Of a DNA stretch of 64,000 bases, positions 7,218-52,939 are shown piece by piece. The notes under the pieces are model-generated. The model had not been told where the DNA came from, made no database searches, and was given only the letters and a program-made list of their open reading frames with translations. Position 1 is the stretch's first letter; each line of letters starts with the position of its first letter. Source of the DNA: a bacterium (GTDB lineage: Bacteria > Krumholzibacteriota > Krumholzibacteriia > LZORAL124-64-63); the NCBI GenBank assembly GCA_031441465.1, contig JANOEP010000046.1:32001-96000 (forward strand). The letters run 5' to 3'. A program made the position numbers and the translations under genes.

Positions 7218-7295
7218 GTCAGCTCCTTCTGCGGTGGGCCGGCGCCGCTCCGGACGCCGGGTGCCGGCCGGCGAAGGCGCCGGGCAGCCGCGCCC

Positions 7296-7323
7296 ATTGT
7301 ACTACCCCGGCGCGGGCGTTCAA
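7296..7323 (-). promoter_or_regulatory. putative sigma70 promoter of the tol-pal operon
   Basis: TTGAAC-16 nt-TACAAT. Confidence 0.55.
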
Positions 7324-7368
7324 GGCCGGAGTCTGGGGAAACCCCCCGGACCGGCCCGGGGTTCCGGG

Positions 7369-35465: not shown

Positions 35466-36874
35466 CGAAATTCCTTTCCCCGCGCCGCGGCCCGCACGCC
35501 CAGGACGTCGAAGGGCGTGACGGCGGCGAAGCGGGCCGTGAGCCAGTCCCCGGCGGCGAGACCGCGCCCGTCGAGCAGCACGACCCCGTCCGTTTCGTAG
35601 GCGAAATGCCGGCTGCGGGCGACGGCGACCGGTCCCGCGGCCAGCGAACCCGGATCCGCGGTCCCGGGTTCCCGATCCCCGCCGGCGAGGTCCTCCAGCA
35701 GGTCCGCCCACTCGGCGCCGTCGCCGACGCTGTCGACGACGACGTCGAACTCCTCCCCCAGCCTGGTGAGCTGCCGATCGCGGGCGATCTCCGACTGGAG
35801 GTCCATGATGCGGGCCTCGCGGTCGGCGACCTCCTCGGTGTCGGGCGCGTCGTCGAAGCCAGCGCCGGCGGTCCCCGCCTCGGGAGAATAGCGGTAGGTG
35901 CCCACGTGGTCAAACCGGATGCGCTCCAGGAAGTCCGCCGTGACTTCGATGTCCTCCTCCTGCTCACCCGGGAATCCCAGCAGCAGCGTGGTGCGCAGCA
36001 CCAGGTCGGGACGGTCGCGGCGCAGTTCTTCGAAGAAGCGCGCCAGCTTCTCCGTGTCGAAGGGCCGGTTCATGCGGCGCAGCACCGCCGGCGAGGCGTG
36101 CTGGACCGGCATGTCCACGTAAGGCAGCACCTTGGGCAGGTCGAGCAGGCGGCGGAAACGGTCCACCCCGATCAGGCCCGGGTAGAGGTAGTGCAGCCGT
36201 ACCCAGCGCAGATCGGCGACCTCCGCCAGCGCCGCCGCGAGGTCGAACAGGTCTTCGCCGGCCCCGCGGCCGAAATCGCTGGTGTTCTGGGAGACCAGCA
36301 TCAGCTCGCGCACCCCCCGCGCCGCCAGCCGGCGGGCCTCGTCGACCAGTTCGGCGACCGGCCGCGAACGCTGGTCGCCGCGAATCAGGGGGATGCGGCA
36401 GAAGGCGCAGCGGAAGTTGCAGCCCTCGGACACCTTCATGAATGCCAAGTGCGGCGGCGTCAGCAGGGGGCGGTCGGCCATCCCCTCGTAGCGGGCCTCT
36501 TCGGGGCGCGCCACGGGGACCCGGTCCTGTCCCAGTTCCAGGGCGTCGAGCAGCCGATCGAAGTTGCCGACGCCGTTGACCAGGTCGATCCCGGGATGGT
36601 CGCGCGCGATGCTCTCGCCGTGCTCCTGGGTCAGGCAGCCCGTCACCACGAGGGTGCGCCCACCCTTGGTGGCGCACATTTCGGCGATGGCTTCGTAGCT
36701 GTCGAGGCGCGCGGCCTCGATGAAGCCACAGGTGTTCAGCACCCAGATGTCGGCGCCGGCGGGGTCGGCCGTGGTGGGGATGCCCCGCGCGACGAAGCGG
36801 CCGAGCAGCGCCTCGCTGTCCACCAGGTTCTTGTCGCAGCCGAGGGTGCGGCAGTGGACGGTGCGCCGGGTCAC
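35462..36874 (-). CDS. rimO: ribosomal protein S12 methylthiotransferase RimO
   Basis: LGCDKNLVDSE, NTCGFIEAA, EGCNFRCAFCRIP (CxxxCxxC), WVRLHYLYP, ETDG. Confidence 0.92.
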   Translation of the reverse strand: MTRRTVHCRTLGCDKNLVDSEALLGRFVARGIPTTADPAGADIWVLNTCGFIEAARLDSYEAIAEMCATKGGRTLVVTGCLTQEHGESIARDHPGIDLVNGVGNFDRLLDALELGQDRVPVARPEEARYEGMADRPLLTPPHLAFMKVSEGCNFRCAFCRIPLIRGDQRSRPVAELVDEARRLAARGVRELMLVSQNTSDFGRGAGEDLFDLAAALAEVADLRWVRLHYLYPGLIGVDRFRRLLDLPKVLPYVDMPVQHASPAVLRRMNRPFDTEKLARFFEELRRDRPDLVLRTTLLLGFPGEQEEDIEVTADFLERIRFDHVGTYRYSPEAGTAGAGFDDAPDTEEVADREARIMDLQSEIARDRQLTRLGEEFDVVVDSVGDGAEWADLLEDLAGGDREPGTADPGSLAAGPVAVARSRHFAYETDGVVLLDGRGLAAGDWLTARFAAVTPFDVLGVRAAARGKEFR

Positions 36875-39247
36875 GTGAGGCTGTCCTCCTCGAATTCGCG
36901 CAGGGCGCTGAGGTCGTCGGGCTTCATGACGACCTCGCGGGCCTTGCTGCCGATGAACGGCCCCACCACGCCCGCCTGCTCGAGCAGGTCCATGAGCCGT
37001 CCGGCGCGCGCATAACCGATCTGCAGCTTGCGCTGCAGCATCGAGGTCGACCCGTGCTGGGACAGCACGATGATCTCGCGCGCCTTCTCGAACAGCGGGT
37101 CGTCGTCGAGATCCAGCACGGAGGCCTCCTCGCGCTCCTCCTGCAGGGTGATGGGCCGCGTGACGTGCTTGAACTGTCGCCAGTGGGCGGCCAGGGCCTC
37201 GCACTCCTCGATGTCGATGAACGCGCCGTGGACGCGCACCGGCGTGGCCCGGCCCGGCTGCAGGTACAGCATGTCGCCCTTGCCCAGGAGCTTCTCGGCT
37301 CCGTTCGCGTCCAGGATGGTGCGCGAGTCGTTCTTCTGGATGACCCGGAAGGCGATGCGGCAGGGGATGTTGGCCTTGATCACGCCGGTCAGCACGTCGA
37401 CGCTCGGGCGCTGCGTCGCCAGCACCAGGTGGATGCCCACGGCGCGCGCCTTCTGGGCGATCCGGGTGATCGGCATCTCGATCTCCTGGCCGAGCTGGAT
37501 CATGAGATCCGCCAGTTCGTCGACGATGCAGACGTAGTAGGGCATCGGCTCGCTGATCGCAACGCCGTCGTCGCCTGCAATCTCGCCGGCGGCCACCTTG
37601 CGGTTGTAACCCTCGATGTTGCGCACGCTGTGGCGCGAGAGGCGCCGGTAGCGGTGGTCCATCTGGGCTTCCATCCACTTCAGCGCCCGCAGCGCGTCCT
37701 TGGGGTCGGTCACCACCGGCAGCAGCAGGTGCGGGATGTCGTTGTAGACGTTCAGCTCCAGCATCTTGGGATCGATCAGCAGCAGCCGGACCAGGGAGGG
37801 GTCGCAGCGCAGCAGCAGCGAGCTGATCATGGCGTTGACGCAGACGCTCTTGCCGCTGCCGGTCGAGCCGGCCACCAGCAGGTGGGGCTGCTCGGCGAGG
37901 TCGATCGTCACCGCCTCGCCGAAGACGTCGCGGCCCAGCACCACGCTCAGCGGGGTGCGCATGCGGTCGGCGGCCTGGACGAAGACCTCCTTCATCGAGA
38001 CGATCTGCTGCGTCGGGTTGGGGATCTCGATGCCGACGGCCGCCTTGCCGGGGATGGGAGCCTCCATGCGGATGGAGCGGGCCTTCATCGCCAGGGCGAG
38101 GTCGTCGGAACGCTGCACGATGGCGTTGACCTTGATCCCGGACGCCGGCTGGTACTCGTAGGTGGTCACCACGGGGCCGGGCCGGACGTCCTTGACCGCG
38201 CCCTCGACGCCGAACGAGCGCAGCGTCTCCTCGAGCAGGTCGGCCGCGGCGTGCAGCAATTCCGCGGAAACGGCCACGCGGTCGGTCGGCGGTTCGCGCA
38301 GCACCGAGAGGTCGGGCAGCGGCAGCGGCACCGCCGGATCCACCAGTCCCGAGGTGACTTCGGCGAATCCCTCGGCAGAGCCGGCGGCCGAGGCGCGGCG
38401 GCCCGCCACCGGCGGTCCGTCATCTTCGTCGAAATCCCTCGCCGAGGCGCGGTCGTGGTCGGGCGGGGCGTGCACGACGCGCGGGGTTGCGGCGGCCGGG
38501 GCCGGTTCCGCACGGGAACGGGCGGGCGCGACGGCCGACGCCACGGCCGCGGGCTTCACGACGCGCCGTTCGGCCTCGTCCCTGGCCGTCGCGGCCGCGC
38601 CGCGCCAGGTCCGGGCGATCCCGCGCACCAGACGCCACGGCAACATCAGAACCCAGAGCAACGCGCGCCAGGCGGCCACCAGTCCCGTGCCCAGCGCCTC
38701 TCCCCAGGGTCCCAAGCGGCCGAGGAAGGCCGGCAACCAGGGGTGCGTGGCGCGCAGCACGGCGGTCAACAGCAGGAACGACAGGAAGATGCCGGCGCCC
38801 CAGCGTCCGAAGAGGGCGCCGAATCCGCGCGCGAGGCCGTAACCGGGAGCCCCGCCCCACGCCGCGGCCGGCGCCGCTTCCAGCGGCCAGCCGGATTGCC
38901 CCAGCCAGGCGACCGAGGCAAGGCACAGCGGGATCAACCGGCTGCCCAAGTACAGTCGAGGCGCCTCACCGCGCGCCAGCAGGACCAGGCCGCGGATCGC
39001 CAGCAGCAACGGCAGGGCCCAGCACCAGAGCGCGCCCAGACCGGCGCGCAGCGCCAGCGCGACCAGGGCGCCGACCGGACCGCCGGGGTTGCCCTGGGGC
39101 ATCAATTCGGAGCCGGGATCGCCGTTCGCCAGGGACCACCAAGAGGCGGCCGGGCCGCTGAGCGCGAGCGCCGCGTAGACGGCCAGCACCACGTGCAGCA
39201 GGCCGCCGAGCCGCGGGGACCGCCACCAGCTTGCGGCGTTGGTCTGG

Positions 39248-39270
<23 letters not shown>
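36871..39270 (-). CDS. ftsK: DNA translocase FtsK
   Basis: N-terminal TMs, [46 protein letters not shown], gamma domain [14 protein letters not shown]. Confidence 0.93.
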
Positions 39271-40633
<1,363 letters not shown>

Positions 40634-40697
40634 CCGCGTCTCTCCTGTCGTGGCTCGGTACGGGAACGGCGGCGGCGGCGGCCGCTGCCGCCGGACG

Positions 40698-40726
40698 ATT
40701 GTCCGGCCGGCGCCGGAAAATGGCAA
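40698..40726 (-). promoter_or_regulatory. putative sigma70 promoter of accC
   Basis: TTGCCA-17 nt-GACAAT. Confidence 0.5.
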
Positions 40727-40745
40727 GCCTGGAAGCGGGACGGGA

Positions 40746-40776
40746 GCGGCGCGCGCCCCCCGGGGACGCGCGCCGC
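40746..40776 (-). terminator. GC hairpin after accB (terminator or RNA-stability element)
   Basis: 10-bp perfect stem gcggcgcgcg/cgcgcgccgc; no U-tract. Confidence 0.35.
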
Positions 40777-40790
40777 GGCTGGACGACGGT

Positions 40791-41255
40791 TCAGGCGGGA
40801 TCCACGAGGAACAGGATCGCCTCGGCTTCCACCGGCGTGGCGTTCTCGACCAGGATCTCTTTGATGACCCCGCCGAATTCGGCCTCGATCTCGTTCATGA
40901 CCTTCATGGCTTCGATGATGCACAAGGTCTGGCCCGGCTTGATGGTGTCACCCGTGTTGACGAAGTTCGGCACGTCCGGCGCGGGACCCCGGTACAGCGT
41001 GCCGACGATGGGCGAGCGGATCTCGCGCCACTTCGCCCGTTCGGGGTTGGCCGCGGGAGCGGCGGGCGCCGCCGTCGCGGAGGCGGCGACCGGCGCGGCC
41101 GCCGCCGGGGGCAACGTGGCGGCGTAGGCCAGGTGGGCCGACGGCGCGGCGTGCTTCTGGATGCGGATGGTGGTGTCCTTGTCGATCACTTCGAGTTCGT
41201 CGATGCGGCTGTCCTCGACCAGCTTGACAAGCTCGCGCACCTTGCTGAGATCCAT
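40791..41255 (-). CDS. accB: biotin carboxyl carrier protein
   Basis: Ala/Pro linker, [20 protein letters not shown] biotinylation motif. Confidence 0.94.
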
Positions 41256-41279
41256 GGTCTCCCCTTCCGGCCGGAGGCG

Positions 41280-41837
41280 TCAGACGCGCCCCAGGTACTT
41301 GCCCGTGCGGGTGTCGATCTTGAGGACCTCGCCCTCCTCGATGAACAGCGGCACCTGGACGACGAGCCCCGTCTCCAGGGTCGCCGGCTTGGAGGCGCCC
41401 TGGGCGGTGTCGCCACGCAGACCGGGATCGGTCTGGGCCACCTTCAGCTCGACGGTGTTGGGCGCCTCGACGGTCACCGGCACGCCGTCGCGCAGGAGCA
41501 TGTTGACCGTCTCGCTCTCCTTGACGTACTTGGCCACATCGCCCAGCGTGTCCCGGGGCAGCGAGATCTGCTCGTAGGTCTCGAGGTTCATGAAGGTCAG
41601 AAAATCGCCGTCCACGTAGAGGAACTGGAAGTCGCGACGCTCGAGCCGGACCTCCTCGAACTTCTCCCCGGAACGGAACGTGTCCTCGACGACCTTCCCG
41701 GTGGAAACGTTCTTCAGCTTCGTGCGCACGAAGGCCGAGCCCTTGCCCGGCTTGACGTGCTGGAAATCGACGATGGCCCAGAGACTGTTCTTGTAGTTCA
41801 GGACCATGCCGTTGCGAAAATCGCTCGTGTCAGCCAA
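41280..41837 (-). CDS. efp: elongation factor P
   Basis: HVKPGKGSAFVRTKLKN, RGDTAQGASKPATLETG, IDTRTGKY; TTG start after AGGAGAGG. Confidence 0.94.
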   Translation of the reverse strand: MADTSDFRNGMVLNYKNSLWAIVDFQHVKPGKGSAFVRTKLKNVSTGKVVEDTFRSGEKFEEVRLERRDFQFLYVDGDFLTFMNLETYEQISLPRDTLGDVAKYVKESETVNMLLRDGVPVTVEAPNTVELKVAQTDPGLRGDTAQGASKPATLETGLVVQVPLFIEEGEVLKIDTRTGKYLGRV

Positions 41838-41892
41838 CTCGGCCTCTCCTGTGCGAGTGACGCCCTGCCGGGCAGCGTGAAAATGCCCACTA

Positions 41893-41921
41893 TTGATAAC
41901 ATCTGTTCCGCGAGATGGCAA
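41893..41921 (-). promoter_or_regulatory. putative sigma70 promoter of efp-accB
   Basis: TTGCCA-17 nt-TATCAA in AT-rich gap. Confidence 0.45.
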
Positions 41922-42374
41922 TCAGGCGTTGCCGTCTCCCAGCAGCCCCTTCACGCCCCGCAGGGCAAGGCGGTAGCTGTCGACGCCGAAACCGCAGATC
42001 GAAGCCCTGACGACGTCCCGCAGCAGGTTCTGCCGGCGGAACGGCTCGCGGGCGTCGGGATTGGAAAGGTGGACTTCGACCACGGGCGTCGCCACGCAGA
42101 GCAGCGCGTCGCGCACCGCCACCGAGGTGTGGGTGTAGGCGGCGGCGTTGACCACCAGCGCCGCGGCCTCGTTCCCCCAGTGATGGATCAGGGTCACGAG
42201 TTCGCCCTCGACCTCGGTCTGGTGGCAGACGACGCGCAGCCCCAGCGCGGCACCTTCGGCCACACAGACGGCGTCGAGCTGCGCCAAGGTGAGCGCGGGG
42301 TAATGCTCGGCCTCGCGACGGCCGAGCTGGCTCAGGTTCGGCCCGTTCAGGACCGCGACCAGGGGTGCGGTCAC
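41922..42374 (-). CDS. aroQ: type II 3-dehydroquinate dehydratase
   Basis: LNGPNL..LGRRE, NAAAYTHTSVAVRDA, EVHLSN..AREPFR. Confidence 0.92.
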   Translation of the reverse strand: MTAPLVAVLNGPNLSQLGRREAEHYPALTLAQLDAVCVAEGAALGLRVVCHQTEVEGELVTLIHHWGNEAAALVVNAAAYTHTSVAVRDALLCVATPVVEVHLSNPDAREPFRRQNLLRDVVRASICGFGVDSYRLALRGVKGLLGDGNA

Positions 42375-43213
42375 GCCGGGCCGCCCTGCTGCCGGTCGAT
42401 CCAGGCTTCGAAGCGGGCGCGGTTGTGGTCGGCCGGCGGTGAGCCGGCGACGGGAGCCGCCGGTTCCGGCGCCGCGGCGCCGGCGGGGACGCCCCCTGCC
42501 GCTCCCGGCGCACAGGGCGTCGCGTCCGCCGTCGCGTCGACCGCTTCCAGGCTGGCGATTTCACGGGCCACGTCGGCGCGCTCCGGGTGCTCGGCCAGCA
42601 GCCGGCGCAGGATCGCGAGCGCCTTCTGACGGTGTCCCTGGGCCAGATAGATCTCGGCCAGGGTCTGGGTCAGGAATCGCGGCGCCGGGCCGATGTCCGC
42701 GACGGGTGGGGACGCCGCCACCGCCGGCGCGGTCTCGGCTGGCGGCGCCCACGGCTGATCGGCCCCGGCCGCCGGTTCGTCGTCGGTCGCCGCATCGGCC
42801 GGGATCATGTCTTCCTGGATCGCAGCTACCGGGAACACTTCCGTCGGGCCACCACCGACCGGCACGTCGACGAATGTCGCCGTTGCGGCCGCGATCCCGG
42901 CGGGCGCCGCCGGTTCGCGATCCGGCAGGGCCAGCAACTGTGGCGCTTCACGGTGGCCGGCATCGCGATCGAGCACCGCGCGGGCCAGGTCGCGCGCCTC
43001 GGCCGGTCGTCCTTGATCACGGCGGACGCGGGCTAGGACGACCCGGGCCGACAGGGAGTCGGCGCACCGTTCGAGCCCCTCCTCGAGCAGGGCCGAGGCG
43101 GCTTCCAGCCGGCCTTCCGCCCGGTAGAGTTCGGCCAGAGGGATGAAGAACCGGTCGCGCGGCCGGCGGTCCTGCTGCATCTCGAAGTAGCGGATCATGC
43201 GATCGTGGGTCAC
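42371..43213 (-). CDS. tetratricopeptide repeat protein with acidic Pro/Ala linker
   Basis: FIPLAELYRAEGRLEAA and TLAEIYLAQGHRQKALAIL TPR motifs; GTG start after GAAGGA. Confidence 0.75.
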   Translation of the reverse strand: MTHDRMIRYFEMQQDRRPRDRFFIPLAELYRAEGRLEAASALLEEGLERCADSLSARVVLARVRRDQGRPAEARDLARAVLDRDAGHREAPQLLALPDREPAAPAGIAAATATFVDVPVGGGPTEVFPVAAIQEDMIPADAATDDEPAAGADQPWAPPAETAPAVAASPPVADIGPAPRFLTQTLAEIYLAQGHRQKALAILRRLLAEHPERADVAREIASLEAVDATADATPCAPGAAGGVPAGAAAPEPAAPVAGSPPADHNRARFEAWIDRQQGGPA

Positions 43214-43297
43214 GCCGTTTCCTTCAACCAACTGGTGATCGTCGCTGCAACGAGCGTGTCGGTCGCGACCCGCGGCGGGCCCGCTGGCCGACGGTTC

Positions 43298-43327
43298 AGT
43301 CTAGGCACTCGCATGGTCCGCCGTCAA
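43298..43327 (-). promoter_or_regulatory. putative sigma70 promoter of TPR-aroQ
   Basis: TTGACG-18 nt-TAGACT. Confidence 0.5.
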
Positions 43328-43345
43328 GCCGCCTGCGGGAATCGT

Positions 43346-44038
43346 TCACAAGATACCCAACCAGGGCCCCAACAGTTCCTGGAACCTGCCGACCAGCAGC
43401 GCCACGCGCCCCATGACGGCCGAACCGAAGGAGGCGCCGAAGGTGATCATCAGCACCAGCAGGCCCCAGCGGGCCACCCGCCCGTAGGCGCCCTTCTGTT
43501 CGCGCGTGTTGACGAAATAGACCAGGCCGCTGACCGTGCCGGCCAGCACCAGCAACTGGGCCAGGCTCTCCTGCCAGAGCCAGCGGCCGGCCGCCGTCGG
43601 GGCCAGCCCCGCGCCGATGGTCGCCTGGATCTGGTAGAGGAAGTCCGAACGCAGGTAACGGACCAGCGAATAGCCGGCGGTGGTGCCGAGGGCGAACGCG
43701 GTGGGCCACTTGCCGAGCCAGGACAACCGCGGCCACAACCGCGCCAGCATCAGCAGACCCAGCGCCGCGGGGATCAGGGCCACGGGGTCCCAGGCGCCCA
43801 CCGGCGCCTCGGGGCTGGACCAGCGGCCAGCGGCCGGGAAGAGCTTCAACACGAGGGCGGGCCACAGGGTCGTCCAGAAGCCCATCACCATCCAGTAGGC
43901 CGCCGACACGCCGACGAACACGTGCTCGGCGAACTTGTAGAACGGGTTGTCCCGCCACAGGAAGGAGAAGACCATCAGGGTCAGCAGCGCGCCGATCCAG
44001 ACCTGCAAGTCCCCGCTGAGGTGGATCGCGGCGATCAC
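43346..44038 (-). CDS. uncharacterised multi-pass membrane protein (DUF6754 cassette gene 4)
   Basis: About 6 hydrophobic segments; motifs RDNPFYKFAEHVFVGVSAAY and MITFGASFGSAVMGR; GTGA overlap. Confidence 0.75.
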   Translation of the reverse strand: MIAAIHLSGDLQVWIGALLTLMVFSFLWRDNPFYKFAEHVFVGVSAAYWMVMGFWTTLWPALVLKLFPAAGRWSSPEAPVGAWDPVALIPAALGLLMLARLWPRLSWLGKWPTAFALGTTAGYSLVRYLRSDFLYQIQATIGAGLAPTAAGRWLWQESLAQLLVLAGTVSGLVYFVNTREQKGAYGRVARWGLLVLMITFGASFGSAVMGRVALLVGRFQELLGPWLGIL

Positions 44039-44910
44039 GGCGTCCTCCGGCGCGCGAGGCGGCGCAGCAGCAGACCCGCGTTGCCCAGCAGGATGAAGGC
44101 GACGATCACCAGGTGCGCCGCCGACTGGGGGCCCATCCCGCGGGTGGCCTGCTGATTGGCGGCCACGAACTCGGGATGGCCCCGGGCGAGCGCGCCCTCG
44201 TACTCGGCCGCCCCCTTCAAGGCGCTCATCAGGCCGAGGATCTGCAACGGGTAGTAGGGGAAGAACTGCGGGGCGCCCACGCCGGTACAACCGCCGGCGA
44301 GCGGCACGTCCAGCACATCGCCGGCGTAGAGGATCCACTCCTTGAGACCCGGCTGCCCCGCCGAAAGGCTGACGATCAGGCCGAAGTCGGCCAGGCCGCG
44401 CACGCCGCGCAGCGCGGCGATCTGCCGCAGCGGCCGGCCGGCGACGTCCGTGGGGTAGCGCGCGGTCAGCGAATCGCGCAGGCTGTTGATGAGCATCTCC
44501 CCGCCGACCTGGAAGCCGAGCGAGACCCAGTCGCGGCCGGGGGCGGCCTGCGGGAATTCCCGCGCGATGACGCGCTCCTCCACGCGCGAGATCATGTTGT
44601 TGCCCGTGGGGTACAGCGACATGTAGCAGATCGGGTGGCCGGTCAGCAGCGCGTGCTGGGTCAAGGCGTCGGCCATGGGCTCGAGTTCCGGGGCGGAGCT
44701 GGGCGAGTAGTCCAGCGACAACAGGATCGGCGCTCCGGCCGGCAGGTTTTCGATGCGGTCGTAGATCGGCTGAACGACGGAGGTGGCCCGATCGGGCGTG
44801 CTCACGCCGGTGAGCAGCGACACCACGACGACCGCGGCCAGCACCAGGAAGATCCAGCGCCGGTCCAGGGACTCCAGCCGCGAGGCGAGCCGATCGTACC
44901 GGTGGATCAC
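44035..44910 (-). CDS. uncharacterised membrane-anchored protein (DUF6754 cassette gene 3)
   Basis: N- and C-terminal TM around a soluble domain; SLDYSPSSAPELEPM, LKGAAEYE, GMGPQSAAHL. Confidence 0.75.
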   Translation of the reverse strand: MIHRYDRLASRLESLDRRWIFLVLAAVVVVSLLTGVSTPDRATSVVQPIYDRIENLPAGAPILLSLDYSPSSAPELEPMADALTQHALLTGHPICYMSLYPTGNNMISRVEERVIAREFPQAAPGRDWVSLGFQVGGEMLINSLRDSLTARYPTDVAGRPLRQIAALRGVRGLADFGLIVSLSAGQPGLKEWILYAGDVLDVPLAGGCTGVGAPQFFPYYPLQILGLMSALKGAAEYEGALARGHPEFVAANQQATRGMGPQSAAHLVIVAFILLGNAGLLLRRLARRRTP

Positions 44911-45632
44911 GACCCGTCACCTCCGGAGCGGGGGTCCTTCTCCAGGCCGGCGATCATGCGCACCGCCAGGGCGATGACGCCCAGGGCGATCCCGATCATC
45001 AGGGCCCGCTGCCCGGCGGTGTTGGGCACGCGCAGGATCCAGAGGGACAGTTCCTCGACCCGCAGGAAGGCGACGGGCTCCGGGATCCAGGCCGTCAGGT
45101 AGCGCCCGGCGGGGATGCGGCCGAGCAGGACCACCAGGGCCGAGGCCAGCAGCAGGGTCGACTCGAGGGACCGCGCGCGGAAGGCGCGGTACGAGGCCGA
45201 CGCGATGTAGAAGGCCAGCAGGCTGTAGAGCGTCGCGTGCAGCGGGCTGAGCACCGCATCGAACACCGTGCTCAGCCAGCTGCCGGGCGCGGTGACGTCG
45301 CCCTGCAGGCCGGGCGGGCCGCCCAGCTTGGCCATGCCGACCACCAGCACGATCACGAACGAGACCAGGGTGACGAGGGAGTAGTAGCGGTCCGGACCGC
45401 GGTCCCTGATCTTCACCAGGTGCGTCGCGACGAGGTTCAAGCCGCCGAGCAGGAAAGCGAAGACCGTCAGGATGCTGAACCAGGTGGCGAACTCCTGGTC
45501 GGCGAAAGCCAGCATCCGCTGCACGTAGGGCGCGTTCCCGTCCTCGGGACGGGCGATGAAAGCCGAGATGATCAGCAGCACCGCCGTGACGGACAGGATG
45601 ATCTGCGGCACGCGCTGCTTCACGGGGCTCAC
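44907..45632 (-). CDS. uncharacterised multi-pass membrane protein (DUF6754 cassette gene 2)
   Basis: About 6 TM; YSLLAFYIASASYRAFRAR, LLGRIP, WILRVPNTAGQRALMIG; GTGA overlap (alternative GTG 45623). Confidence 0.75.
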   Translation of the reverse strand: MSPVKQRVPQIILSVTAVLLIISAFIARPEDGNAPYVQRMLAFADQEFATWFSILTVFAFLLGGLNLVATHLVKIRDRGPDRYYSLVTLVSFVIVLVVGMAKLGGPPGLQGDVTAPGSWLSTVFDAVLSPLHATLYSLLAFYIASASYRAFRARSLESTLLLASALVVLLGRIPAGRYLTAWIPEPVAFLRVEELSLWILRVPNTAGQRALMIGIALGVIALAVRMIAGLEKDPRSGGDGS

Positions 45633-46441
45633 CCCGCCCGGAAGACGTTGAGGAAGGCGTCGCGCAGGAACGTCCAAGGCGCCGCCCCGGTCACGTCCGC
45701 CACGGTCACCACCAGGCTGCCCGCGACGAGGCAGACCGCGGCCGCGAGTTTGCAGAGATCCTGGCCGCGCAGGCTGCCGAGCCGGGCGGCGTCGCCCTCC
45801 AGGGAAGCGGCCGCGGCGAAGAGTTCCTCGCCGAGCAGCACGTGATCGCACGACGCCACCAGGAAGGGCAGCTGGACCGCGCTGGCGGTGCCCGCGATCT
45901 GGACCGCTCCGACCTGGTGCCCACCTTCGGCCAGCAGCAGCGATTCCGAGGCGAAGAAGCCCATCAGGACGCAGAGGCCAGGGCGCTCGCGGGCGATGAG
46001 CCCGTCCACCCGCGCCACGAAACCGAGGTGGTCGTCCGAGATGTAGGCCACCCAGTCGTCGCGCCAGAGATCGGCGCGGCCGGCGTCGGCGTAGGCGAGG
46101 CGGCAGATCTCACGCGCGTTGTCCATGACCAGGCTGCGGTTGGTCGGGACGAACAGGCGGCCGCCGGCTTCGGCGACCTTGCGCGCGAGCGGCCGCAGCA
46201 CGGCCAGCGCCGCGACCGTCTGCATGTTGTCGAGATCCTGGGAGCCGGCGACGAAGTAGACGGGCCGTCCGGCGGCGACGGCGTCGGCGACGGCGCGGTC
46301 GAGGGCGAGCAGAGGCGGCAGGGCGCGCACCGACACCGTGGCGCCGCGGCGGGCCCGCAGGACCGAGAACCCGATCAGGGCGCACACGAACGCGCCGACC
46401 AGGGCGACGTTCCAGGTCCCGGGTGCGAGCCAGCCGCTCAC
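45629..46441 (-). CDS. DUF6754-like membrane-anchored protein (cassette gene 1)
   Basis: GRPVYF, FFASESLLLAEGG, GAVQIAGT, QLPFLVASCDHVLLGEELFAA, LGSLRGQD; family name from recall. Confidence 0.72.
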   Translation of the reverse strand: MSGWLAPGTWNVALVGAFVCALIGFSVLRARRGATVSVRALPPLLALDRAVADAVAAGRPVYFVAGSQDLDNMQTVAALAVLRPLARKVAEAGGRLFVPTNRSLVMDNAREICRLAYADAGRADLWRDDWVAYISDDHLGFVARVDGLIARERPGLCVLMGFFASESLLLAEGGHQVGAVQIAGTASAVQLPFLVASCDHVLLGEELFAAAASLEGDAARLGSLRGQDLCKLAAAVCLVAGSLVVTVADVTGAAPWTFLRDAFLNVFRAG

Positions 46442-46731
46442 GGGCCCGTCTCCGGACGCGGGCCTTCCAGCAGGTCCAGCAGGCGGTCGAAGTGGCAGCG
46501 CTGCTCCAGGATGCGCGCCAGGCGCGCCGTACCGGAGCGCGGCACCACGAGATCGCAGAAGGGACTCGCGACGTGCAGGGCCTGCGAGCCCAGGAACGAC
46601 AGCGGGCTGGAACTCGCGAGCCACAGCAGGGCCGGCGTCGCCAGGCCCGCGCCGCGCACGCGCGCCGCCAGGCCGGCGAGGAACGCGTCGTCGGCGGGGT
46701 CGAGGCTCGGCGGGCGGCCGGCGTCGCTCAT
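46438..46731 (-). CDS. small hypothetical protein
   Basis: 97-aa ORF overlapping both neighbours by ATGA/GTGA; GLATPALLWLASSSPLSFLGSQAL. Confidence 0.65.
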   Translation of the reverse strand: MSDAGRPPSLDPADDAFLAGLAARVRGAGLATPALLWLASSSPLSFLGSQALHVASPFCDLVVPRSGTARLARILEQRCHFDRLLDLLEGPRPETGP

Positions 46732-48389
46732 GTCACCTTCGCCTTCACGTGGGCGGTCACCACCACCATGTCGTCCAGCAGCCCCTCGCTACAGGCGAGC
46801 GGATCGCTGCACGCGAGCTTGGCCAGGAACTCGCGCGGGGTCTCCCCGTCCGGCGGCAGAACGGCGACCGCACAACCGGCGGCGCAGGTCGCGGCGCCGT
46901 CGCGCACGGCCGCCAGGGCCAGGCGGGCGTTCACCCGGCTCATCACGGCGACGGCCGCCGCCTCGGCGTACCCCGCCGCGGCCAGCGCGGCCGCGCGGCG
47001 GCAGAAGGCGCCGGCCACCTCGCAGGCGGTCATCATGTCGGCCAGACGGAACAGCACCGACTGGCGGCCGTTCGTCTTGCGGGCGTGCACGAACTGGATC
47101 GTCGCGTTGAGGTCGCGGACGGCCGCGGCGGCGAGACCGGCGCCCACCTCGCCGTGGGAGACGTGGAGCGCGTCGAGGCCGGCGGCTGCTTCCTCGTACC
47201 AGGCGCCCCGGGTGCGCACGGTCGACTTCCAGCGGTACAGACCGATGATGCTCTGCTGGATCTCGCTGGTGCCTTCGTAGATCGTCGTGATGCGAACGTC
47301 GCGCTTGATCTTCTCGACCATGTACTCGCGTGCGTAGCCGTAGCCGCCCAGGGCCTGGATGGCCGCCTCGGCCGCCCGGTTGCCGGCCTCGGTGCACCAG
47401 TACTTGGCGATCGAGCCCTCGACCTGCAGGTCGCGCTCGCCGCCGTCGAGGCGCAGGGCGATCTCCTCCACGTAGGCGCGGCCGGCGGCCAGCGCGATCC
47501 AGTGGGGCGTGATGAGCTTGCTGCTGTAGCCTTCCTTGTCGATCAGAGGCGCGCCGAACTGGATGCGTTCGCGGGCGTAGCGCACGGCCCGGTCGAGCGC
47601 CGCCTGGCCGGCGCCCAGGCCGAACGCGCCGACCATCACCCGCGTGTAGCCGAACACGGCGTTGGCCTGTTTCAGCCCCTGGCCCTCCACGCCGCCGATC
47701 AAATGGGAGACCGGGACCTCCACGTCCTCCAGCACGACGCCGCTGGTGTCCGAGGCGCGGATGCCGTGCTTGTCCTCGTGCTTGCCGGCGCTGAGGCCGG
47801 GTGTCGCGCGCTCCACGACGAAGAACGAGGGACCATCGGGCGTCTTGGCCAGGATGGTGTACAGCTCGGCCACGCCGCCGTTGGTGATGAACTGCTTGGT
47901 GCCGTTGAGGCGGTACCCGGTGACGGCGCCGGCGGCGTCGGTCAGGCGGTCGGCGCGCGTCTGCAGCGCGGCCACGTTGCTGCCGGCGGCGGGTTCGGTC
48001 ACGCCGTAGGCGACGATCAGGCCTTCGGCGGCGATGCGGCCCAGCCAGTGGTCCTTCTGCTGCGGCGTGCCGCCGACGATGATCGGGTCGGTGCCCAGGC
48101 AGATCGCCAGGAAGGCGGTCGCCACGCCCAGGTCGATGGCGGCCATCTCCTCGCTGACGCGGCAGATGTCCAGGGCGCCGCCGCCGAGCCCGCCGACGGC
48201 CTCGGGCAGGAAGATCAGGTGCAGGCCGACGTTGGGCGAGAGCAGCTCCCTGATGAAGGCGACGGGGAACTCGTCGCGCGCATCCAGGCCGAGCAGGATG
48301 TCGTCGGGCAGGTCCCGTTGCACGACCTGGCGCAGCGTCTGGACGATCATCTCGCGCATCTCGGGCGACAGGCCGGCGGTCTGGGTCAT
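46728..48389 (-). CDS. acyl-CoA dehydrogenase with C-terminal extension
   Basis: AYGVTEPAAGSN, LNGTKQFITNG, KHGIRAS, ERIQFG, QALGGYGY, catalytic IYEGTSEIQ; AGGAG RBS. Confidence 0.9.
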   Translation of the reverse strand: MTQTAGLSPEMREMIVQTLRQVVQRDLPDDILLGLDARDEFPVAFIRELLSPNVGLHLIFLPEAVGGLGGGALDICRVSEEMAAIDLGVATAFLAICLGTDPIIVGGTPQQKDHWLGRIAAEGLIVAYGVTEPAAGSNVAALQTRADRLTDAAGAVTGYRLNGTKQFITNGGVAELYTILAKTPDGPSFFVVERATPGLSAGKHEDKHGIRASDTSGVVLEDVEVPVSHLIGGVEGQGLKQANAVFGYTRVMVGAFGLGAGQAALDRAVRYARERIQFGAPLIDKEGYSSKLITPHWIALAAGRAYVEEIALRLDGGERDLQVEGSIAKYWCTEAGNRAAEAAIQALGGYGYAREYMVEKIKRDVRITTIYEGTSEIQQSIIGLYRWKSTVRTRGAWYEEAAAGLDALHVSHGEVGAGLAAAAVRDLNATIQFVHARKTNGRQSVLFRLADMMTACEVAGAFCRRAAALAAAGYAEAAAVAVMSRVNARLALAAVRDGAATCAAGCAVAVLPPDGETPREFLAKLACSDPLACSEGLLDDMVVVTAHVKAKVT

Positions 48390-48430
48390 GATTCACTCCT
48401 GATGAACGGTGGCGGATGGTGGCGACGGTC

Positions 48431-49357
48431 TCAGAGGACCGAACCCTGATCGAAGCGCAGGCGGCCTTGTGCGAGCAGGACGCCGTGCCCGCCCACGCGG
48501 ATCGCGCCGCAACGGCCGTCGTGGACCTCGGCCTCGGCGTACAGGCGGCTCGGGCGCCTCATTTCCAGTCCCTGCTCGCAGACGATGCGGACGTGGGGCT
48601 GCGGCGGCACCAGGCGGTGCTTGATCATGTACGCGATCAAGGCGCCCGCGGCGCTGCCGGTCGCCGCGTCCTCGGGGATGCCGAAGTCCTGGGCGAACAT
48701 GCGGCAGTGCACGTCGACCCCGGCGCCCTCGGCCTCGCAGGTGAAGACGAAGAGGTCGCCGAAGCCGAGGTCGCGGGAGATCTCCCGCGCCGCGGCCCGA
48801 TCGAAGCGGATGGACTGCACGGCCTCGAGCGAACCCATCGGGACGATGTGGATGGGCAGGCCCGCCGAGACGATCTCGCAGGGCAGGCCCGTGATGGCGA
48901 TGTCCGTTTCCTCGACGCCCAGCGCCCGGGCCACCTTGCCCCGCTGGTAGTACTGCCCGATGAACTCCGCGGGCTCGTGGACCAGCGAGTACAGCGTGGC
49001 GCCGTCGACTTCCGACAGCACGACGGGGAACTCGCCGGCCTCGGTCCGCCAGTGGAAGCGGGTCTCGTCGCCCCCCCGTGCGATCCGGCCGCAGGCGTCC
49101 AGGCCGCAGGTGGCGCCCAGGATCGAAAGCCCCGACAAGGGGATCTCCCCCTTGGGCGTGAAGATCCGCAGCCGGGCGCGGTTGACGCCGCCGGGGTCCG
49201 GCTCCGCGAACACCGTCTCGCCGGTGCCCATCTCGCGGGCGATGACCTGGAGCAGGGCGGTCGGCACGCCGGCCGCGTCGGGGAACAGCGTCAGACGGCT
49301 GCCGCCGAACGGCACGCGCGTGTACAGGTCCAGGTGCATGAATTCGCGTTCGAACAA
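48431..49357 (-). CDS. PhzF family (DapF-like fold) isomerase
   Basis: GETVF, LRIFTP.GEIP, VSAGLP, CRMFA, EDAATGSA, EQGLEMRRPS; start uncertain (TTG 49357, ATG 49339 or ATG 49402). Confidence 0.82.
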   Translation of the reverse strand: MFEREFMHLDLYTRVPFGGSRLTLFPDAAGVPTALLQVIAREMGTGETVFAEPDPGGVNRARLRIFTPKGEIPLSGLSILGATCGLDACGRIARGGDETRFHWRTEAGEFPVVLSEVDGATLYSLVHEPAEFIGQYYQRGKVARALGVEETDIAITGLPCEIVSAGLPIHIVPMGSLEAVQSIRFDRAAAREISRDLGFGDLFVFTCEAEGAGVDVHCRMFAQDFGIPEDAATGSAAGALIAYMIKHRLVPPQPHVRIVCEQGLEMRRPSRLYAEAEVHDGRCGAIRVGGHGVLLAQGRLRFDQGSVL

Positions 49358-49400
49358 GCGGATCCCCGTGGTTGCGTTGGGCTGCGGCAACTCAGCGGGC

Positions 49401-49429
49401 ATCCTAACCGCTCGCCCGCGGCGGTGCAA
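49401..49429 (-). promoter_or_regulatory. putative sigma70 promoter of phzF-ACAD-DUF6754 unit
   Basis: TTGCAC-17 nt-TAGGAT. Confidence 0.5.
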
Positions 49430-49468
49430 GCAGGGGATGACGGGCAGGGGTGGCGGGGGGGGGCGCCG

Positions 49469-49837
49469 TCAGTCGAGGACCACGACGGCCATGGCGATCT
49501 CGCGCTCGTGGCTGAGGGACAGCAGGACGCGCCCTCCCCCGCGCTCGCGCAGGGCCTCCGCCGCGCCGCCGTGCAACCGCAGGACCGCAGGACCGCCCTC
49601 GCAGTGGACGACCTCGACGTCGCGGTAGGCGATCGGGCCGGCGACTCCGATCGCCTTGACGAAGGCCTCCTTCGCCGCCCAACGCGAGGCGAGGGTGGCC
49701 GGACCCTGGGCGCCGCGCCGCGCCGCCAGGGCGATCTCGTCGGGCCGGAAGCAGCGCTGCAGGAAGCGATCGCCGTGACGCTCGACCGCGGTGCGGATGC
49801 GCGCGACCTCGACGATGTCGCTGCCGAGCCCGCGCAT
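49469..49837 (-). CDS. acpS: holo-ACP synthase
   Basis: GLGSDIVEVARI, LASRWAAKEAFVKA, LSLSHE. Confidence 0.92.
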   Translation of the reverse strand: MRGLGSDIVEVARIRTAVERHGDRFLQRCFRPDEIALAARRGAQGPATLASRWAAKEAFVKAIGVAGPIAYRDVEVVHCEGGPAVLRLHGGAAEALRERGGGRVLLSLSHEREIAMAVVVLD

Positions 49838-50538
49838 CAGTAGGCTCCCTTGCGCTCGATCACGGCGGGGATCGTGCGCGACAGGATCCGCAGGTCGAAG
49901 ACCGGCCCGCGCCGCCGCACGTACTCGAGATCCAGTTCCATCCAGTCCTCGAAATCCAAGTGGCTGCGCCCCGACACCTGCCACAGGCAGGTCAGCCCGG
50001 GCTTCACCTGGAGCCGCCGCGCCTGGGCGGGCGTGTACGCGGCCACCTCGCTGGGGATCTGCGGACGCGGGCCGACCACCGACATCTCGCCGCGCAGCAC
50101 GTTGTACAGCTGCGGGAACTCGTCGAGGCTGCTGCGCCGCAGGAAACGGCCGACGCCGGTGATGCGGGGGTCGCGCTCGATCTTGAAGGCGGCGCCGCTG
50201 GCCTCGTTCAGGTGGGCGAGGTCGTCCTTGCGGGTCTCGGCGTCCACGACCATCGAGCGGAACTTGTAGCAGTCGAAGGCGCGCCCCCGCAGGCCGACGC
50301 GGCGCTGGCGGAAGAACACCGGGCCCGGGGTGTCGAGCCTGATCAGGATGACGAGCAGCGGGAAGACCGGCAGCACCAGCAGCAGGCCGACGGCGGCTCC
50401 CAGGAGGTCCACGAGGCGCTTGACCGCGGCGCCGGCGGGATTGGCGGTGGGCACGGGCCCGTGGGGGTCGCGCGCGATGAAGGCGGCGTAGCCGCCGGCG
50501 GCGGCGTAGACATCCGCGTCGTCGAGGTGAGGGCTCAC
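49837..50538 (-). CDS. small monotopic phosphoglycosyl transferase (bacterial sugar transferase)
   Basis: KRLVD, GPVFFRQRRVG, YKFRSM, DPRIT, SLDEFPQLYNVLRGEMSVVGPRP, KPGLTCLWQVSGR. Confidence 0.9.
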   Translation of the reverse strand: MSPHLDDADVYAAAGGYAAFIARDPHGPVPTANPAGAAVKRLVDLLGAAVGLLLVLPVFPLLVILIRLDTPGPVFFRQRRVGLRGRAFDCYKFRSMVVDAETRKDDLAHLNEASGAAFKIERDPRITGVGRFLRRSSLDEFPQLYNVLRGEMSVVGPRPQIPSEVAAYTPAQARRLQVKPGLTCLWQVSGRSHLDFEDWMELDLEYVRRRGPVFDLRILSRTIPAVIERKGAY

Positions 50539-52112
50539 CGGACGGCCTCCCCGCCCGCCGCGGGCGCGCGCCGCCAGTGCAGGGCGGTCACGCCGGGGAA
50601 CTCGCGCACCGCGACCACGTCGCCCAGATCGTCGAGCGCCGCCGGGAAGTGATGGCCCGGGTCGAGCGTCCCGCTGCGGCACAGGACCAGCCAGGCCTGG
50701 TCGGCGTCGCCGATCCGTTCGGACAAGGCGCCGACCACGGCGTCGCGGCCGACGAGCGCCCCGAGACCCCAGAAGTCGCGCACCTCGCCGCGGCCGTCGT
50801 AGTAGAGCCGGAACAGGTCGGTGACCACGGGCACGAGCACCGGGTCGCCCGCGGCGTCCTGGTTCGCGATCCAGACCGCGGCAGCCCGCACGTCGTCCTT
50901 GGCGTAGCGAGGATCGAGGTGGTAACTGCCCGACGACCACAGGGTCAACCCGAGCAGGGCCAGGCTCGCCACCCTCACCGTCCAGCCGTGCATCACGCTG
51001 AGCCCGTGTCCGGCCGCCAGCAGCAGGAAGGGGGCCGCCACCGCCAGGTAGCGGGGCGTGAAGGTCTTCACGTCGAGCAGGCGCATCGCGATGAGAGCGA
51101 CGAACGGCACCACGATCCACAGCGCCGTTTCCCGGCGCCGCCGGCTGCGCCACCAGCCCGTGACCGTCGGGAAAGCGGCCGCGAGCGCGCCTGCGGCCAA
51201 CAATGGCAGGTAGCGGCGGACGATCTCCAGGCGGTCGGGCCGGTGCAACTCCTCCAGCGTCGGGCCGAGGCTGAAGCCGTAGAAGAATGTGAACAGGGCG
51301 TAGGGGACGGCCAGGGGCGTCAGGCGTTCCTGGCCCTCGGGCAGCAGCCCGCCCCCGCCTCCCGGCGCCAGGCGTCCGGGATACCAGTAGCCTGTCGCCT
51401 GCAGCAGCCAGGGCAGGATGATCAGACCGGTCACCCCGAAGGCGACCGCCCAGCCGCGCCGGGCCTCGCCGCTTTGCGGGCGGTGCAGCAGGACCACACC
51501 CAGGACGTGGGCCACGATCAGCAACAGGGCCGACATGTTGCTCAGCACGGCGAGTCCGGCGAGCAGGCCGTAGGTCAACCCGCCCCGCGTCGAGGCGCCG
51601 TGCCGCTGCATGCGCAGCAGCTGCAGGGTCGCCGCCATGGCGAGCAGGACCATCAGGGAATAGCCGCGCGCTTCCTGCCCGTACCAGACGTGGAACGGGT
51701 TGAGGGCGAGCAGCAGGGCCGCCCAGGCACCGGTCGACCGGTCGCGCCATTCGCTGCCGAGTTTGTACATCAGCGGGACGGCCAGGATGCCGGCCAGCGC
51801 CGCCGGCAGCCGCAATAGCCATTCGGGGGAGGCCGGTTGCCCGGGGCGCCAGCTCAGCAGCAGGTACAGGGGCCCCTGGATGTTGTCGCGGAACTGCTCC
51901 CAGAGCCCGTGGCCGGCGCCGGGATGGAGGTTGTGCCAGGTCTGGTACTCGTCGATCCAGAGCGGCGAAGCGCCGAGGTGGTAACCGCGCAGGATGGCCG
52001 CCGCGGCCGTCACCAGGATCACGAACAGGAGCCTTTCGCTGCGCCGACCGGCGGGATCGAGCGCGGGCATGGCCCCCAGTCGAAAGTCGGCGTGCTCCCG
52101 GCGCGAACTCAT
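50535..52112 (-). CDS. GT-C fold membrane glycosyltransferase (GT39/PMT-2 or ArnT-like)
   Basis: LWIDE acidic motif after TM1, PLY, LRLP, NPFHVWYGQEARGYSL, PRYL; many TMs. Confidence 0.78.
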   Translation of the reverse strand: MSSRREHADFRLGAMPALDPAGRRSERLLFVILVTAAAAILRGYHLGASPLWIDEYQTWHNLHPGAGHGLWEQFRDNIQGPLYLLLSWRPGQPASPEWLLRLPAALAGILAVPLMYKLGSEWRDRSTGAWAALLLALNPFHVWYGQEARGYSLMVLLAMAATLQLLRMQRHGASTRGGLTYGLLAGLAVLSNMSALLLIVAHVLGVVLLHRPQSGEARRGWAVAFGVTGLIILPWLLQATGYWYPGRLAPGGGGGLLPEGQERLTPLAVPYALFTFFYGFSLGPTLEELHRPDRLEIVRRYLPLLAAGALAAAFPTVTGWWRSRRRRETALWIVVPFVALIAMRLLDVKTFTPRYLAVAAPFLLLAAGHGLSVMHGWTVRVASLALLGLTLWSSGSYHLDPRYAKDDVRAAAVWIANQDAAGDPVLVPVVTDLFRLYYDGRGEVRDFWGLGALVGRDAVVGALSERIGDADQAWLVLCRSGTLDPGHHFPAALDDLGDVVAVREFPGVTALHWRRAPAAGGEAVR

Positions 52113-52939
52113 GGCCGGACCTCCGATGACAGGGGACGGCCGAGCCGGAACGATTTCAAGGAAGCGTCGATGGCGCCGACCTTCACTTTCGTCTTCATGA
52201 GCACGGGCAGGCGGTGCTCGTCGTCGCTCAGCCAGATCGTGAGGTCGCCCTCGAACTGGAAGAGCCCTTCGCCCTGGATGACCGGCTGCACGACGAGGCA
52301 GTCGAACGTGCCGGCCGCCACGGTGATCCGCTCGCGTCCCTGGACGTTGACAACGAGGTCGTAGGTCTTGCGCGAACTGTGCGTGGTCACGAGCGCCGGC
52401 TGCCCTGGTTCCAGCGGCAGGGTGCGGACGAAGTAGAACGCCGACAAAATGTCCTGGACCCCGGTCGGAACGTCCTCGTCGTGGCCGTCGAGATGGCGGG
52501 CCTTCCCCGCCTCCTGTTCGTAACGGATCGCCACGTTCTTGCGATAGTCGCCTTCGCGCAGCCGCTTGCTGAAGTAGCGCGTCGCGAGTGTCCGCACGTC
52601 GATGTGGGTGATGACCTTGTCCCGGACGAGGTAGAACGCCGAGAAGAATCGGTTGGACGTGGCCTTGCTCTCCACGGGATAGCACGGGTGGCCGCCGGAA
52701 TCGATGACCTCCCCGACTTCCAGGGAGGCCTCGCCGGCGTTGACGGGTCCGTAGTCGATCGAAAAGACCAACAGCTCGCCCGGCCCGTAGGGAACCGGGT
52801 GGATCGCGGCGGCAGTATCCGGTGCGGAGGCGGTCGTTTCCGCGCCAGCGGCCACGGCGGGGGCGGTCGCCAGGACGGCGAGCGCCGCCGCGGCCAGGGC
52901 CGCCGGCAGGGTTCCCGCCCGGCCTCGTCGCAGGTTCAT
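52109..52939 (-). CDS. DUF3108 domain exported protein
   Basis: Signal peptide, GELLVFSIDYG, QDILSAFY, VAAGTFDC, IWLSDDEHRLPV. Confidence 0.78.
   Translation of the reverse strand: MNLRRGRAGTLPAALAAAALAVLATAPAVAAGAETTASAPDTAAAIHPVPYGPGELLVFSIDYGPVNAGEASLEVGEVIDSGGHPCYPVESKATSNRFFSAFYLVRDKVITHIDVRTLATRYFSKRLREGDYRKNVAIRYEQEAGKARHLDGHDEDVPTGVQDILSAFYFVRTLPLEPGQPALVTTHSSRKTYDLVVNVQGRERITVAAGTFDCLVVQPVIQGEGLFQFEGDLTIWLSDDEHRLPVLMKTKVKVGAIDASLKSFRLGRPLSSEVRP

Follow-up and report, generated by a model that had tools for sequence, protein, structure and literature searches.

The stretch of DNA analysed here (64,000 nt of contig JANOEP010000046.1 from a member of the bacterial phylum Krumholzibacteriota; hereafter the window) carries on its minus strand, at positions 43346–46441, four adjacent genes for membrane proteins, which we call A, B, C and D. 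The original prediction, made from the sequence alone, had placed four consecutive open reading frames (ORFs) there and described them as a cassette of no assigned function. Both points held: the ORFs are present, and only A has a family name, DUF6754. As judged from profile searches, the A-B-C-D module matches no described transporter or enzyme family.

The coupled gene unit and its four membrane subunits

In this genome of ~71% G+C, long spurious ORFs are plentiful. A, B, C and D are real genes and not high-GC artefacts of this kind, because tblastn matched each of them in other phyla (E 1e-30 to 1e-127); a small gene upstream of A, orf97, has homologs there too. Base-by-base reading revealed GTGA overlaps between the stop of orf97 and the start of A (46441–46438), between B and C (44910–44907) and between C and D (44038–44035), and the coupled unit in the window comprises the five genes orf97-A-B-C-D. 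At the A/B junction a GTGA is present at 45632–45629; this junction is ambiguous, because the consensus N-terminus of the aligned B homologs, MKRxVP, falls at the next GTG (45623), so that it may be either a 4-nt overlap or a 5-nt gap. Accordingly, 3 or 4 of the 4 junctions within the unit are 4-nt overlaps. The claim that GTGA joins all four genes was right at B/C and C/D and is uncertain at A/B, and the unit of four genes, real as they are, has five members here and up to eight in relatives. Upstream, an ATGA overlap (46731–46728) connects the stop of an acyl-CoA dehydrogenase (ACAD) gene to the start of orf97. At the other end, the 114-nt gap between D and a tetratricopeptide-repeat (TPR) protein gene holds a sigma-70-like sequence, the sole promoter-like match in 41800–49600 (shuffle mean 0.1), which likely marks the 3' boundary of the coupled unit.

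Table 1 Features of the module and its surroundings in the window.
Feature	Position	Strand	Description
Subunit A	45629–46441	minus	270 aa; PF20539 match; transmembrane helix, Rossmann-like domain (predicted cytoplasmic), transmembrane helix
Subunit B	44907–45632	minus	241 aa (238 aa with GTG start at 45623); six transmembrane helices
Subunit C	44035–44910	minus	291 aa; transmembrane helix, Rossmann-like domain (predicted periplasmic), transmembrane helix
Subunit D	43346–44038	minus	230 aa; five to six transmembrane helices; last gene of coupled unit
orf97	46438–46731	minus	97 aa; small soluble conserved protein; first gene of coupled unit
ACAD	46728–48389	minus	553 aa; Pfam domains
Sigma-70-like promoter match (TTGACG, 18 nt, TAGACT)	43298–43327	minus	Consensus match only
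TPR protein gene	42371–43231	minus	Pfam; 3' of D, after gap

Subunit A matched DUF6754 (PF20539), the type it had been assigned to, over model positions 5–249 of 257 with 263.9 bits (gathering score, 27 bits; E 1.5e-78), and all 120 listed A homologs carry this domain. For B and C there was no Pfam, NCBIfam or PDB sequence match, and for D none above threshold; when 26 homologs of B and 26 of D were scanned singly against Pfam, no family appeared in more than six members and all matches were weak. PDB profile searches (E ≤ 10) returned nothing for B or D and nothing meaningful for A (E 0.11) or C (E 0.14), and in the ESM Atlas B and D found unnamed clusters or no usable match. The profile of D matched 2,722 representative clusters (50% identity) at E ≤ 1e-3, among 1.84 billion.

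Alignment-averaged hydropathy, together with the positive-inside pattern, agreed with the predicted topology, a soluble domain between transmembrane (TM) helices in A and C and about six TM helices in B and D. In A and C a soluble domain of ~200 aa lies between two hydrophobic helices. B shows six hydrophobic stretches whose charges alternate cleanly by the positive-inside rule and give N-in/C-in, and D shows five to six such stretches. The A protein of the window is a short form with no periplasmic N-terminal domain. Longer A homologs begin with a signal peptide followed by an FN3, PQQ-like beta-propeller or unassigned domain before the first TM helix; because of this signal peptide and these extracytoplasmic-type domains, A is N-out with its DUF6754 domain in the cytoplasm. 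For C, the conserved DRR before TM1 and the Arg-rich (RR) C-terminus suggest N-in/C-in, so its domain is probably periplasmic.

The motifs that the original prediction had quoted all lie on invariant or near-invariant columns across phyla, and several of them consist of polar residues in or adjoining TM helices. B carries the conserved motifs LLAFxxASASYRAFRA and PNxAGQRAxMIGIALG, and D the invariant motifs DNPxY..E and FGxxFG...M.R. Together B and D provide 11 to 12 TM helices, in which invariant polar or charged residues abound; examples of such residues are R149 and R209 in B, D30, N31, E38 and R211 in D, and Q262, H266 and N277 in C. In A, 50 columns are invariant across 26 sequences. As a side observation, one D subfamily (P0188, P0209, P0210, P0235, P0248, P0268 and others) has an insertion of ~250–350 aa in the central loop, at profile positions ~145–150, and numerous further D homologs are extended at the N-terminus by 60–225 aa; neither the extensions nor the insertions of these long D forms matched Pfam.

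AlphaFold2 (AF2) models of A (mean predicted local distance difference test score [pLDDT] 85, predicted template-modelling score [pTM] 0.77) and of C (mean pLDDT 92, pTM 0.88) both show a parallel alpha/beta Rossmann-like sandwich between the N- and C-terminal TM helices. Foldseek searches of the PDB with either model gave only weak, generic Rossmann matches (template-modelling score ≤0.35) that were heterogeneous (E ≥ 1e-4): RCK domains, phosphopantoate-beta-alanine ligase and Moco carrier protein for A, and GT-B glycosyltransferase halves and short-chain dehydrogenases/reductases for C. This structural check, which had been proposed at the outset, thus matched A and C to no known transporter family.

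The original prediction had further proposed a stoichiometric 2+2 membrane complex. A multi-subunit complex is plausible from the strict co-inheritance of the genes, described below, and from C-D fusion proteins, three of which occur among the best 150 relatives of D (P0140, P0149, P0163) and give independent support for a partnership of C and D. The idea of two homologous pairs found no support: an internal duplication was rejected at the sequence level both for A and C (hhalign probability 1.3%) and for B and D (0.1%), and A and C apparently face opposite sides of the membrane. A Rosetta-stone search found no longer C proteins; it found 22 longer A proteins, all with periplasmic N-terminal extensions and none fused to B or to the two upstream partners introduced below, Y377 and X605.

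Conservation, tandem arrays and the longer operon of relatives

A pattern scan for relatives of A, covering one genome per GTDB species, gave 624 candidate stretches, from which at least 606 relatives were confirmed; locus counts in this text cover the best 80 of these. By record title, the 80 loci come from Krumholzibacteriota-type metagenome-assembled genomes (some titled 'Fibrobacteraceae'), Zixibacteria, Eisenbacteria, Gemmatimonadota, Ignavibacteria, Calditrichota, Cloacimonadota, WOR-3, Acidobacteriota, Planctomycetota and delta-proteobacterial-type lineages. The expectation that similar cassettes recur in diverse uncultured bacteria was therefore correct; their supposed occurrence in archaea found no support, as no archaeal locus was seen among the best 80 of at least 606.

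All-against-all clustering of the ORFs in the 80 loci counted 117 copies of A in 77 loci, 109 of B in 73, 107 of C in 71 and 102 of D in 67. Gene order, another check named in advance, was kept: among the 96 A copies that had 2,500 nt or more of downstream sequence, 90 had B, C and D after them in this order and on one strand with A (21 more A copies lay too close to the locus end and were left out), and 86 of these 90 modules spanned no more than 2,900 nt. Five of the six exceptions involved a B or A ORF that was split or duplicated (L055) or a B that was unclustered (L048, L068), and in the sixth (L062) D was found by tblastn, yet was unclustered. The window shows this arrangement too, with its four module genes next to one another on one strand in the order A, B, C, D. 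In Caldithrix-type genomes unrelated genes interrupt the module between A/B and C/D and leave the four module genes intact (L017, 8816–11217 and 12783–14402; L028, 8810–11614 and 13180–15192). We rejected these inserted genes as extra subunits, since they differ between the two loci and, by their N-termini only, look like mobile or toxin-antitoxin-type genes (some PIN-like or NYN-like).

Some loci contain the module more than once. At least two A copies were seen in 21 of the 80 loci and at least three in 17, and Zixibacteria- and Ignavibacteria-type genomes have ABCD-ABCD-ABCD arrays. The median identity between tandem copies was 47% for A, 41% for B, 35% for C and 43% for D, and the tandem copies, by this measure, are old paralogs. 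That C is the most divergent subunit between them (35% against 47% for A) is as expected for a specificity-determining periplasmic part. In a quick maximum-likelihood tree of 116 A cores, the array positions 1, 2 and 3 fell into separate clades. Three complete modules are present in 11 loci (L018, L012, L025, L031, L035, L036, L038, L049, L052, L066, L071), and there, for each of the four genes, 33 of 33 copies had their best cross-genome match at the corresponding array position. The four genes have therefore been inherited as intact sets since the triplication, and the modules were never shuffled. This pattern fits cognate partners, and vertically inherited linked genes would behave in the same way. 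One of these loci, L018, has a fourth A copy at the locus edge (at 15970), and between its modules 1 and 2 (6060–7414) are genes that, from their N-termini only, appear NfeD- and SPFH-like.

In Acidobacteriota, Planctomycetota and the clade of the window, the module is part of an operon of eight genes, tm170-orf97-X605-Y377-A-B-C-D. X605 (~605 aa) is an ASKHA-fold protein that matches the Pfam family MutL (PF13941) end to end (E 5.5e-122); with the NCBIfam equivalog models (NF040745, NF040744) it scored 209 bits against a cutoff of 475 and 205 against 600. It has an extra C-terminal region of ~120 aa and is highly conserved, with 69% mean column identity. Its 375-aa partner Y377 gave a weak match to the barrel-sandwich domain RnfC_N (E 5.8e-4, 20.3 bits against a cutoff of 25.6), a weak rnfC subfamily match (E 0.009) and, at the C-terminus, a weak KOW/SPT5 signal in a PDB profile search (E 0.006). 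The PDB profile search with X605 gave no match, and Y377 had no solved relative by sequence. Within 8 kb of A, X605 was found in at least 33 and Y377 in at least 36 of the 80 loci; these are lower bounds, as many of the loci cover no more than array positions 2 and 3 or end early. In most cases the two genes immediately precede A or stand first in an array: one X605-Y377 pair heads the array in L048, L059, L061 and L068, and in L035, L036, L038, L052 and L071 the pair is upstream on the opposite strand.

The window lacks this pair. When the L019 proteins were used as tblastn queries, tm170, X605 and Y377 were absent from the 64-kb window (best E 0.55, 1.1 and 2.4, respectively), and of the four upstream genes only orf97 was present (E 2.9e-6). 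It directly abuts A, in the place where relatives with the extended operon have X605 and Y377 directly upstream of A. By tblastn, orf97 occurs in 22 of the 80 loci and lies ~3 kb upstream of A in every one of them except L001, the gap being filled by X605 and Y377 where these were detected. L001 is the closest genome locus (61% identity in A) and has the same short arrangement as the window. In the tree the two are sisters (support 100) inside a 10-row clade (support 100) whose other eight members all carry X605 and/or Y377; because of this nested position, the short arrangement is, as far as the tree can tell, a secondary loss of tm170, X605 and Y377 from the operon. The surroundings were also compared. 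Past the TPR gene, on the same strand, genes that we name from their translations only as aroQ (3-dehydroquinate dehydratase), efp, accB, accC and ftsK follow at 36871–42374, and the TPR-aroQ neighbourhood is common to the window and its Krumholzibacteria-type relatives; the locus in the window is therefore positionally orthologous to the eight-gene operon of these relatives.

The loss of the upstream genes was accompanied by changes in A. The window departs from the conserved A columns at 15 of 89 and L001 at 12 of 89, against at most 8 in the other 24 rows. The corresponding departures (window and L001) were unexceptional in C (3 and 1 of 50) and D (1 and 1 of 56), and they were intermediate in B (7 and 5 of 53, with a maximum elsewhere of 10). 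Five of the 15 departures in the A protein of the window are in the first cytoplasmic helix (residues ~42–56), where a conserved GRATE motif is replaced. Because A alone departs in the lineages without the ATPase-like gene, and partly at this helix, one possible interpretation is that helix 42–56 is the contact for the cytoplasmic partners that were lost. In the window, the parts of the module in the membrane and the periplasm would still function.

The small protein orf97 matched neither Pfam nor NCBIfam, and its alignment over three phyla has the conserved core P..L.LES.RPLNFLGSQAMHF..P ... LE.R. The ACAD has Pfam Acyl-CoA_dh N, M and C domains (E 2e-16 to 4e-41), with every NCBIfam match below its equivalog cutoff, and carries an Ala-rich C-terminal extension of ~170 aa past these three domains. 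Further upstream, at 48431–53009 on the minus strand, the translations (the only basis for these names) look like a PhzF-type isomerase, a 4'-phosphopantetheinyl transferase (AcpS-like), a sugar transferase and a large ArnT/GT39-like membrane glycosyltransferase.

A candidate translocation machine and its rivals

We favor the reading that A–D form a new hetero-oligomeric inner-membrane complex of the transporter or translocase type, ancestrally driven or regulated by an ASKHA ATPase, and give it a probability of roughly 0.45. In such a complex, orf97 and four cognate membrane subunits would assemble in the inner membrane, with A holding its Rossmann-like domain in the cytoplasm and C a different one in the periplasm. 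A cytoplasmic event at A would be coupled through B and D to an event on the periplasmic side at C, and the specificity would come chiefly from C and from the variable periplasmic extensions of A. Ancestrally, X605, a GlmL/MutL-type ASKHA protein, and Y377 would have driven, gated or regulated the complex, with the ATPase presumably docking on A. The copy in the window may work alone, as modules 2 and 3 of the arrays would do with no ATPase of their own, or with partners encoded elsewhere in the genome. The original prediction had named an ATP-independent solute transporter as one example; ATP independence is doubtful, since the ATPase-like gene X605 is found in at least 33 of the 80 loci, including loci of the window's own clade, and its absence here appears to be secondary.

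Several points weigh against this interpretation. We infer the physical assembly of A–D, and the periplasmic placement of the C domain is deduced from the positive-inside rule. The generic Rossmann likeness of the A and C models would suit enzymes or regulatory ligand-binding domains just as well, and the fold of B or D, which were compared by sequence alone, may still match a known transporter family. GlmL-family proteins are known, partly from their family names, as accessory proteins of soluble B12 mutases and not as transport ATPases. The tree comes from a quick search; the branches of the window and L001 in it are long, and their amino-acid composition is atypical. No clue to a substrate came from the surroundings: an Rfam scan detected no riboswitch or other element in the window or in nine loci, and no neighbor beyond the eight genes was conserved across the 80 loci.

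A more far-reaching version, which we consider on balance doubtful, is that the module is the membrane core of an undescribed class of envelope translocation machines powered or gated by a GlmL-type ASKHA protein in place of a P-loop ATPase. The class would be widespread in the Fibrobacterota-Chlorobiota-Bacteroidota (FCB) group, Planctomycetota, Acidobacteriota and other diderm phyla, and its arrays would be sets of substrate-specific modules sharing one ATPase; the lineage of the window would have shed the ATPase, so that the docking helix of A decayed and the periplasmic and membrane parts stayed constrained.

An envelope scaffold or morphogenetic complex is an unlikely explanation. Here the ASKHA protein would act like MreB, FtsA or PilM, and A–D would be a membrane anchor and periplasmic adaptor (cf. 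MreC/MreD and PilN/PilO) that organises cell-wall or outer-envelope assembly. Such a role would suit the very high conservation of X605, the variable periplasmic domains of A homologs, which are of protein- or glycan-binding type (FN3, PQQ-like propeller), the occurrence of the system in diderm phyla and the NfeD-/SPFH-like genes between the modules of L018. However, X605 belongs to the GlmL/hydantoinase-A branch of ASKHA proteins and not to the actin, MreB or FtsA branch, and three diverged modules arrayed in tandem with a single ATPase pair resemble substrate-specific units more than a scaffold. Many invariant polar residues within the TM helices of B, C and D also argue against it, as does the lineage of the window, which retains the module without the ASKHA gene.

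Equally improbable in our view is a membrane-bound enzyme complex in which A would be the cytoplasmic catalytic subunit, B and D would hold its lipid- or carrier-linked substrate, and further processing of the product on the outer face would fall to C. The some 50 invariant residues of A, including C198-D199 and E205-E206, make a polar density unusually high for a Rossmann-like domain, its Foldseek neighbors and those of C include ligases, glycosyltransferase halves and dehydrogenases, and GlmL-type proteins, going by their family names, accompany enzymes. Those structural matches are nevertheless all weak and heterogeneous, no subunit has a nucleotide- or cofactor-binding Pfam signature, and no biosynthetic neighbors are conserved across phyla.

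We regard an ion-translocating redox module like Rnf or Nqr as very improbable. Y377 would then correspond to an NqrA/RnfC-N-like subunit, A and C to the cytoplasmic- and periplasmic-domain subunits, with the six-TM pair represented by B and D; this parallel in overall architecture, which we infer, and the sub-cutoff RnfC_N and rnfC matches of Y377 speak for it, whereas B, C and D have no Fe-S, flavin or heme motif or invariant Cys pair, the partner is an ASKHA protein and not an NADH- or ferredoxin-binding subunit, and Y377 is missing from the window. The last alternative, that the module is an accessory to fatty-acid or acyl-CoA metabolism which imports or handles a substrate of the ACAD coupled to orf97, is largely excluded, because the ACAD lies upstream of the module in 11 of the 80 loci only, all of one Krumholzibacteria-type clade, with four other genes between ACAD and A in the relatives and no such adjacency in Acidobacteriota, Planctomycetota, Zixibacteria, Gemmatimonadota or other phyla, and the ACAD is probably a clade-specific neighbor outside the core system.

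Whichever reading holds, this is a membrane system of four to eight genes in at least 606 species-level genomes whose sole named subunit family is a DUF, and systems so widespread and conserved usually have a basic role in the envelope or in transport. Should an ASKHA-fold ATPase indeed energise or gate a translocator, it would represent a new energy-coupling principle beside the ABC, P-type, V/F-type and AAA+ ones. The anciently diverged tandem modules and the natural ATPase-less derivative are comparative handles, and since carriers include, by record title, the cultured genera Caldithrix, Phycisphaera and Singulisphaera, the system is expected to be experimentally tractable.

Comparison with known systems

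Our literature search found no account of DUF6754 or of an A-B-C-D system, judged from the search results alone. The PF20539 entry, of which A is a full-length member, describes a single domain and is silent on the partners B, C and D, the tandem arrays and the linkage to an ATPase. The original prediction had found no ABC, TRAP, TTT or ECF signature, and the Pfam and NCBIfam searches agreed, nor did they reveal any other transporter family. No ABC_tran or ABC permease match reached a significant E in seven proteins of the window and eight of L019, with weak single-member matches in the scan of B only; there was no DctQ/DctM, TctA/TctB, EcfT or S-component match in A–D or in the 26 homologs each of B and D. 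C was modelled as a single Rossmann-like domain with no match to a solute-binding protein in the Foldseek search of the PDB.

The Rnf and Nqr complexes resemble the module in having two six-TM subunits, one subunit each for a cytoplasmic and a periplasmic domain, and a soluble partner to which the weakly RnfC-N-like Y377 would correspond. They differ from it in sequence, with no significant similarity (PF02508 was matched by 1 of 26 B members, E 0.2, and RnfC_N in Y377 stayed below its cutoff), in having cofactor motifs, of which the module shows none, nor invariant Cys clusters, and in the energising partner. The end-to-end PF13941 match relates X605 to GlmL/MutL, the accessory proteins of B12-dependent glutamate and ornithine mutases, but X605 scores far below the equivalog cutoffs, has an extra C-terminus and sits with membrane proteins and not with mutase subunits.

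Two further analogies concern the way the genes are combined. In MreB-MreC-MreD and PilM-PilN-PilO, the genes for an ASKHA-fold cytoplasmic protein and for bitopic and polytopic membrane proteins stand together, as they do here, although X605 belongs to the other ASKHA branch named above; A–D had no sequence match to MreC/D or PilN/O, and A and C no fold match. In modular transporters that share an ATPase, such as ECF group II and Mce/MceG, one ATPase serves several membrane modules. The present system has no ABC-type nucleotide-binding domain, EcfT, YrbE or MCE domain, and its putative ATPase is of the ASKHA fold, but the arrangement is alike: one X605-Y377 pair heads or adjoins two to three diverged ABCD modules.

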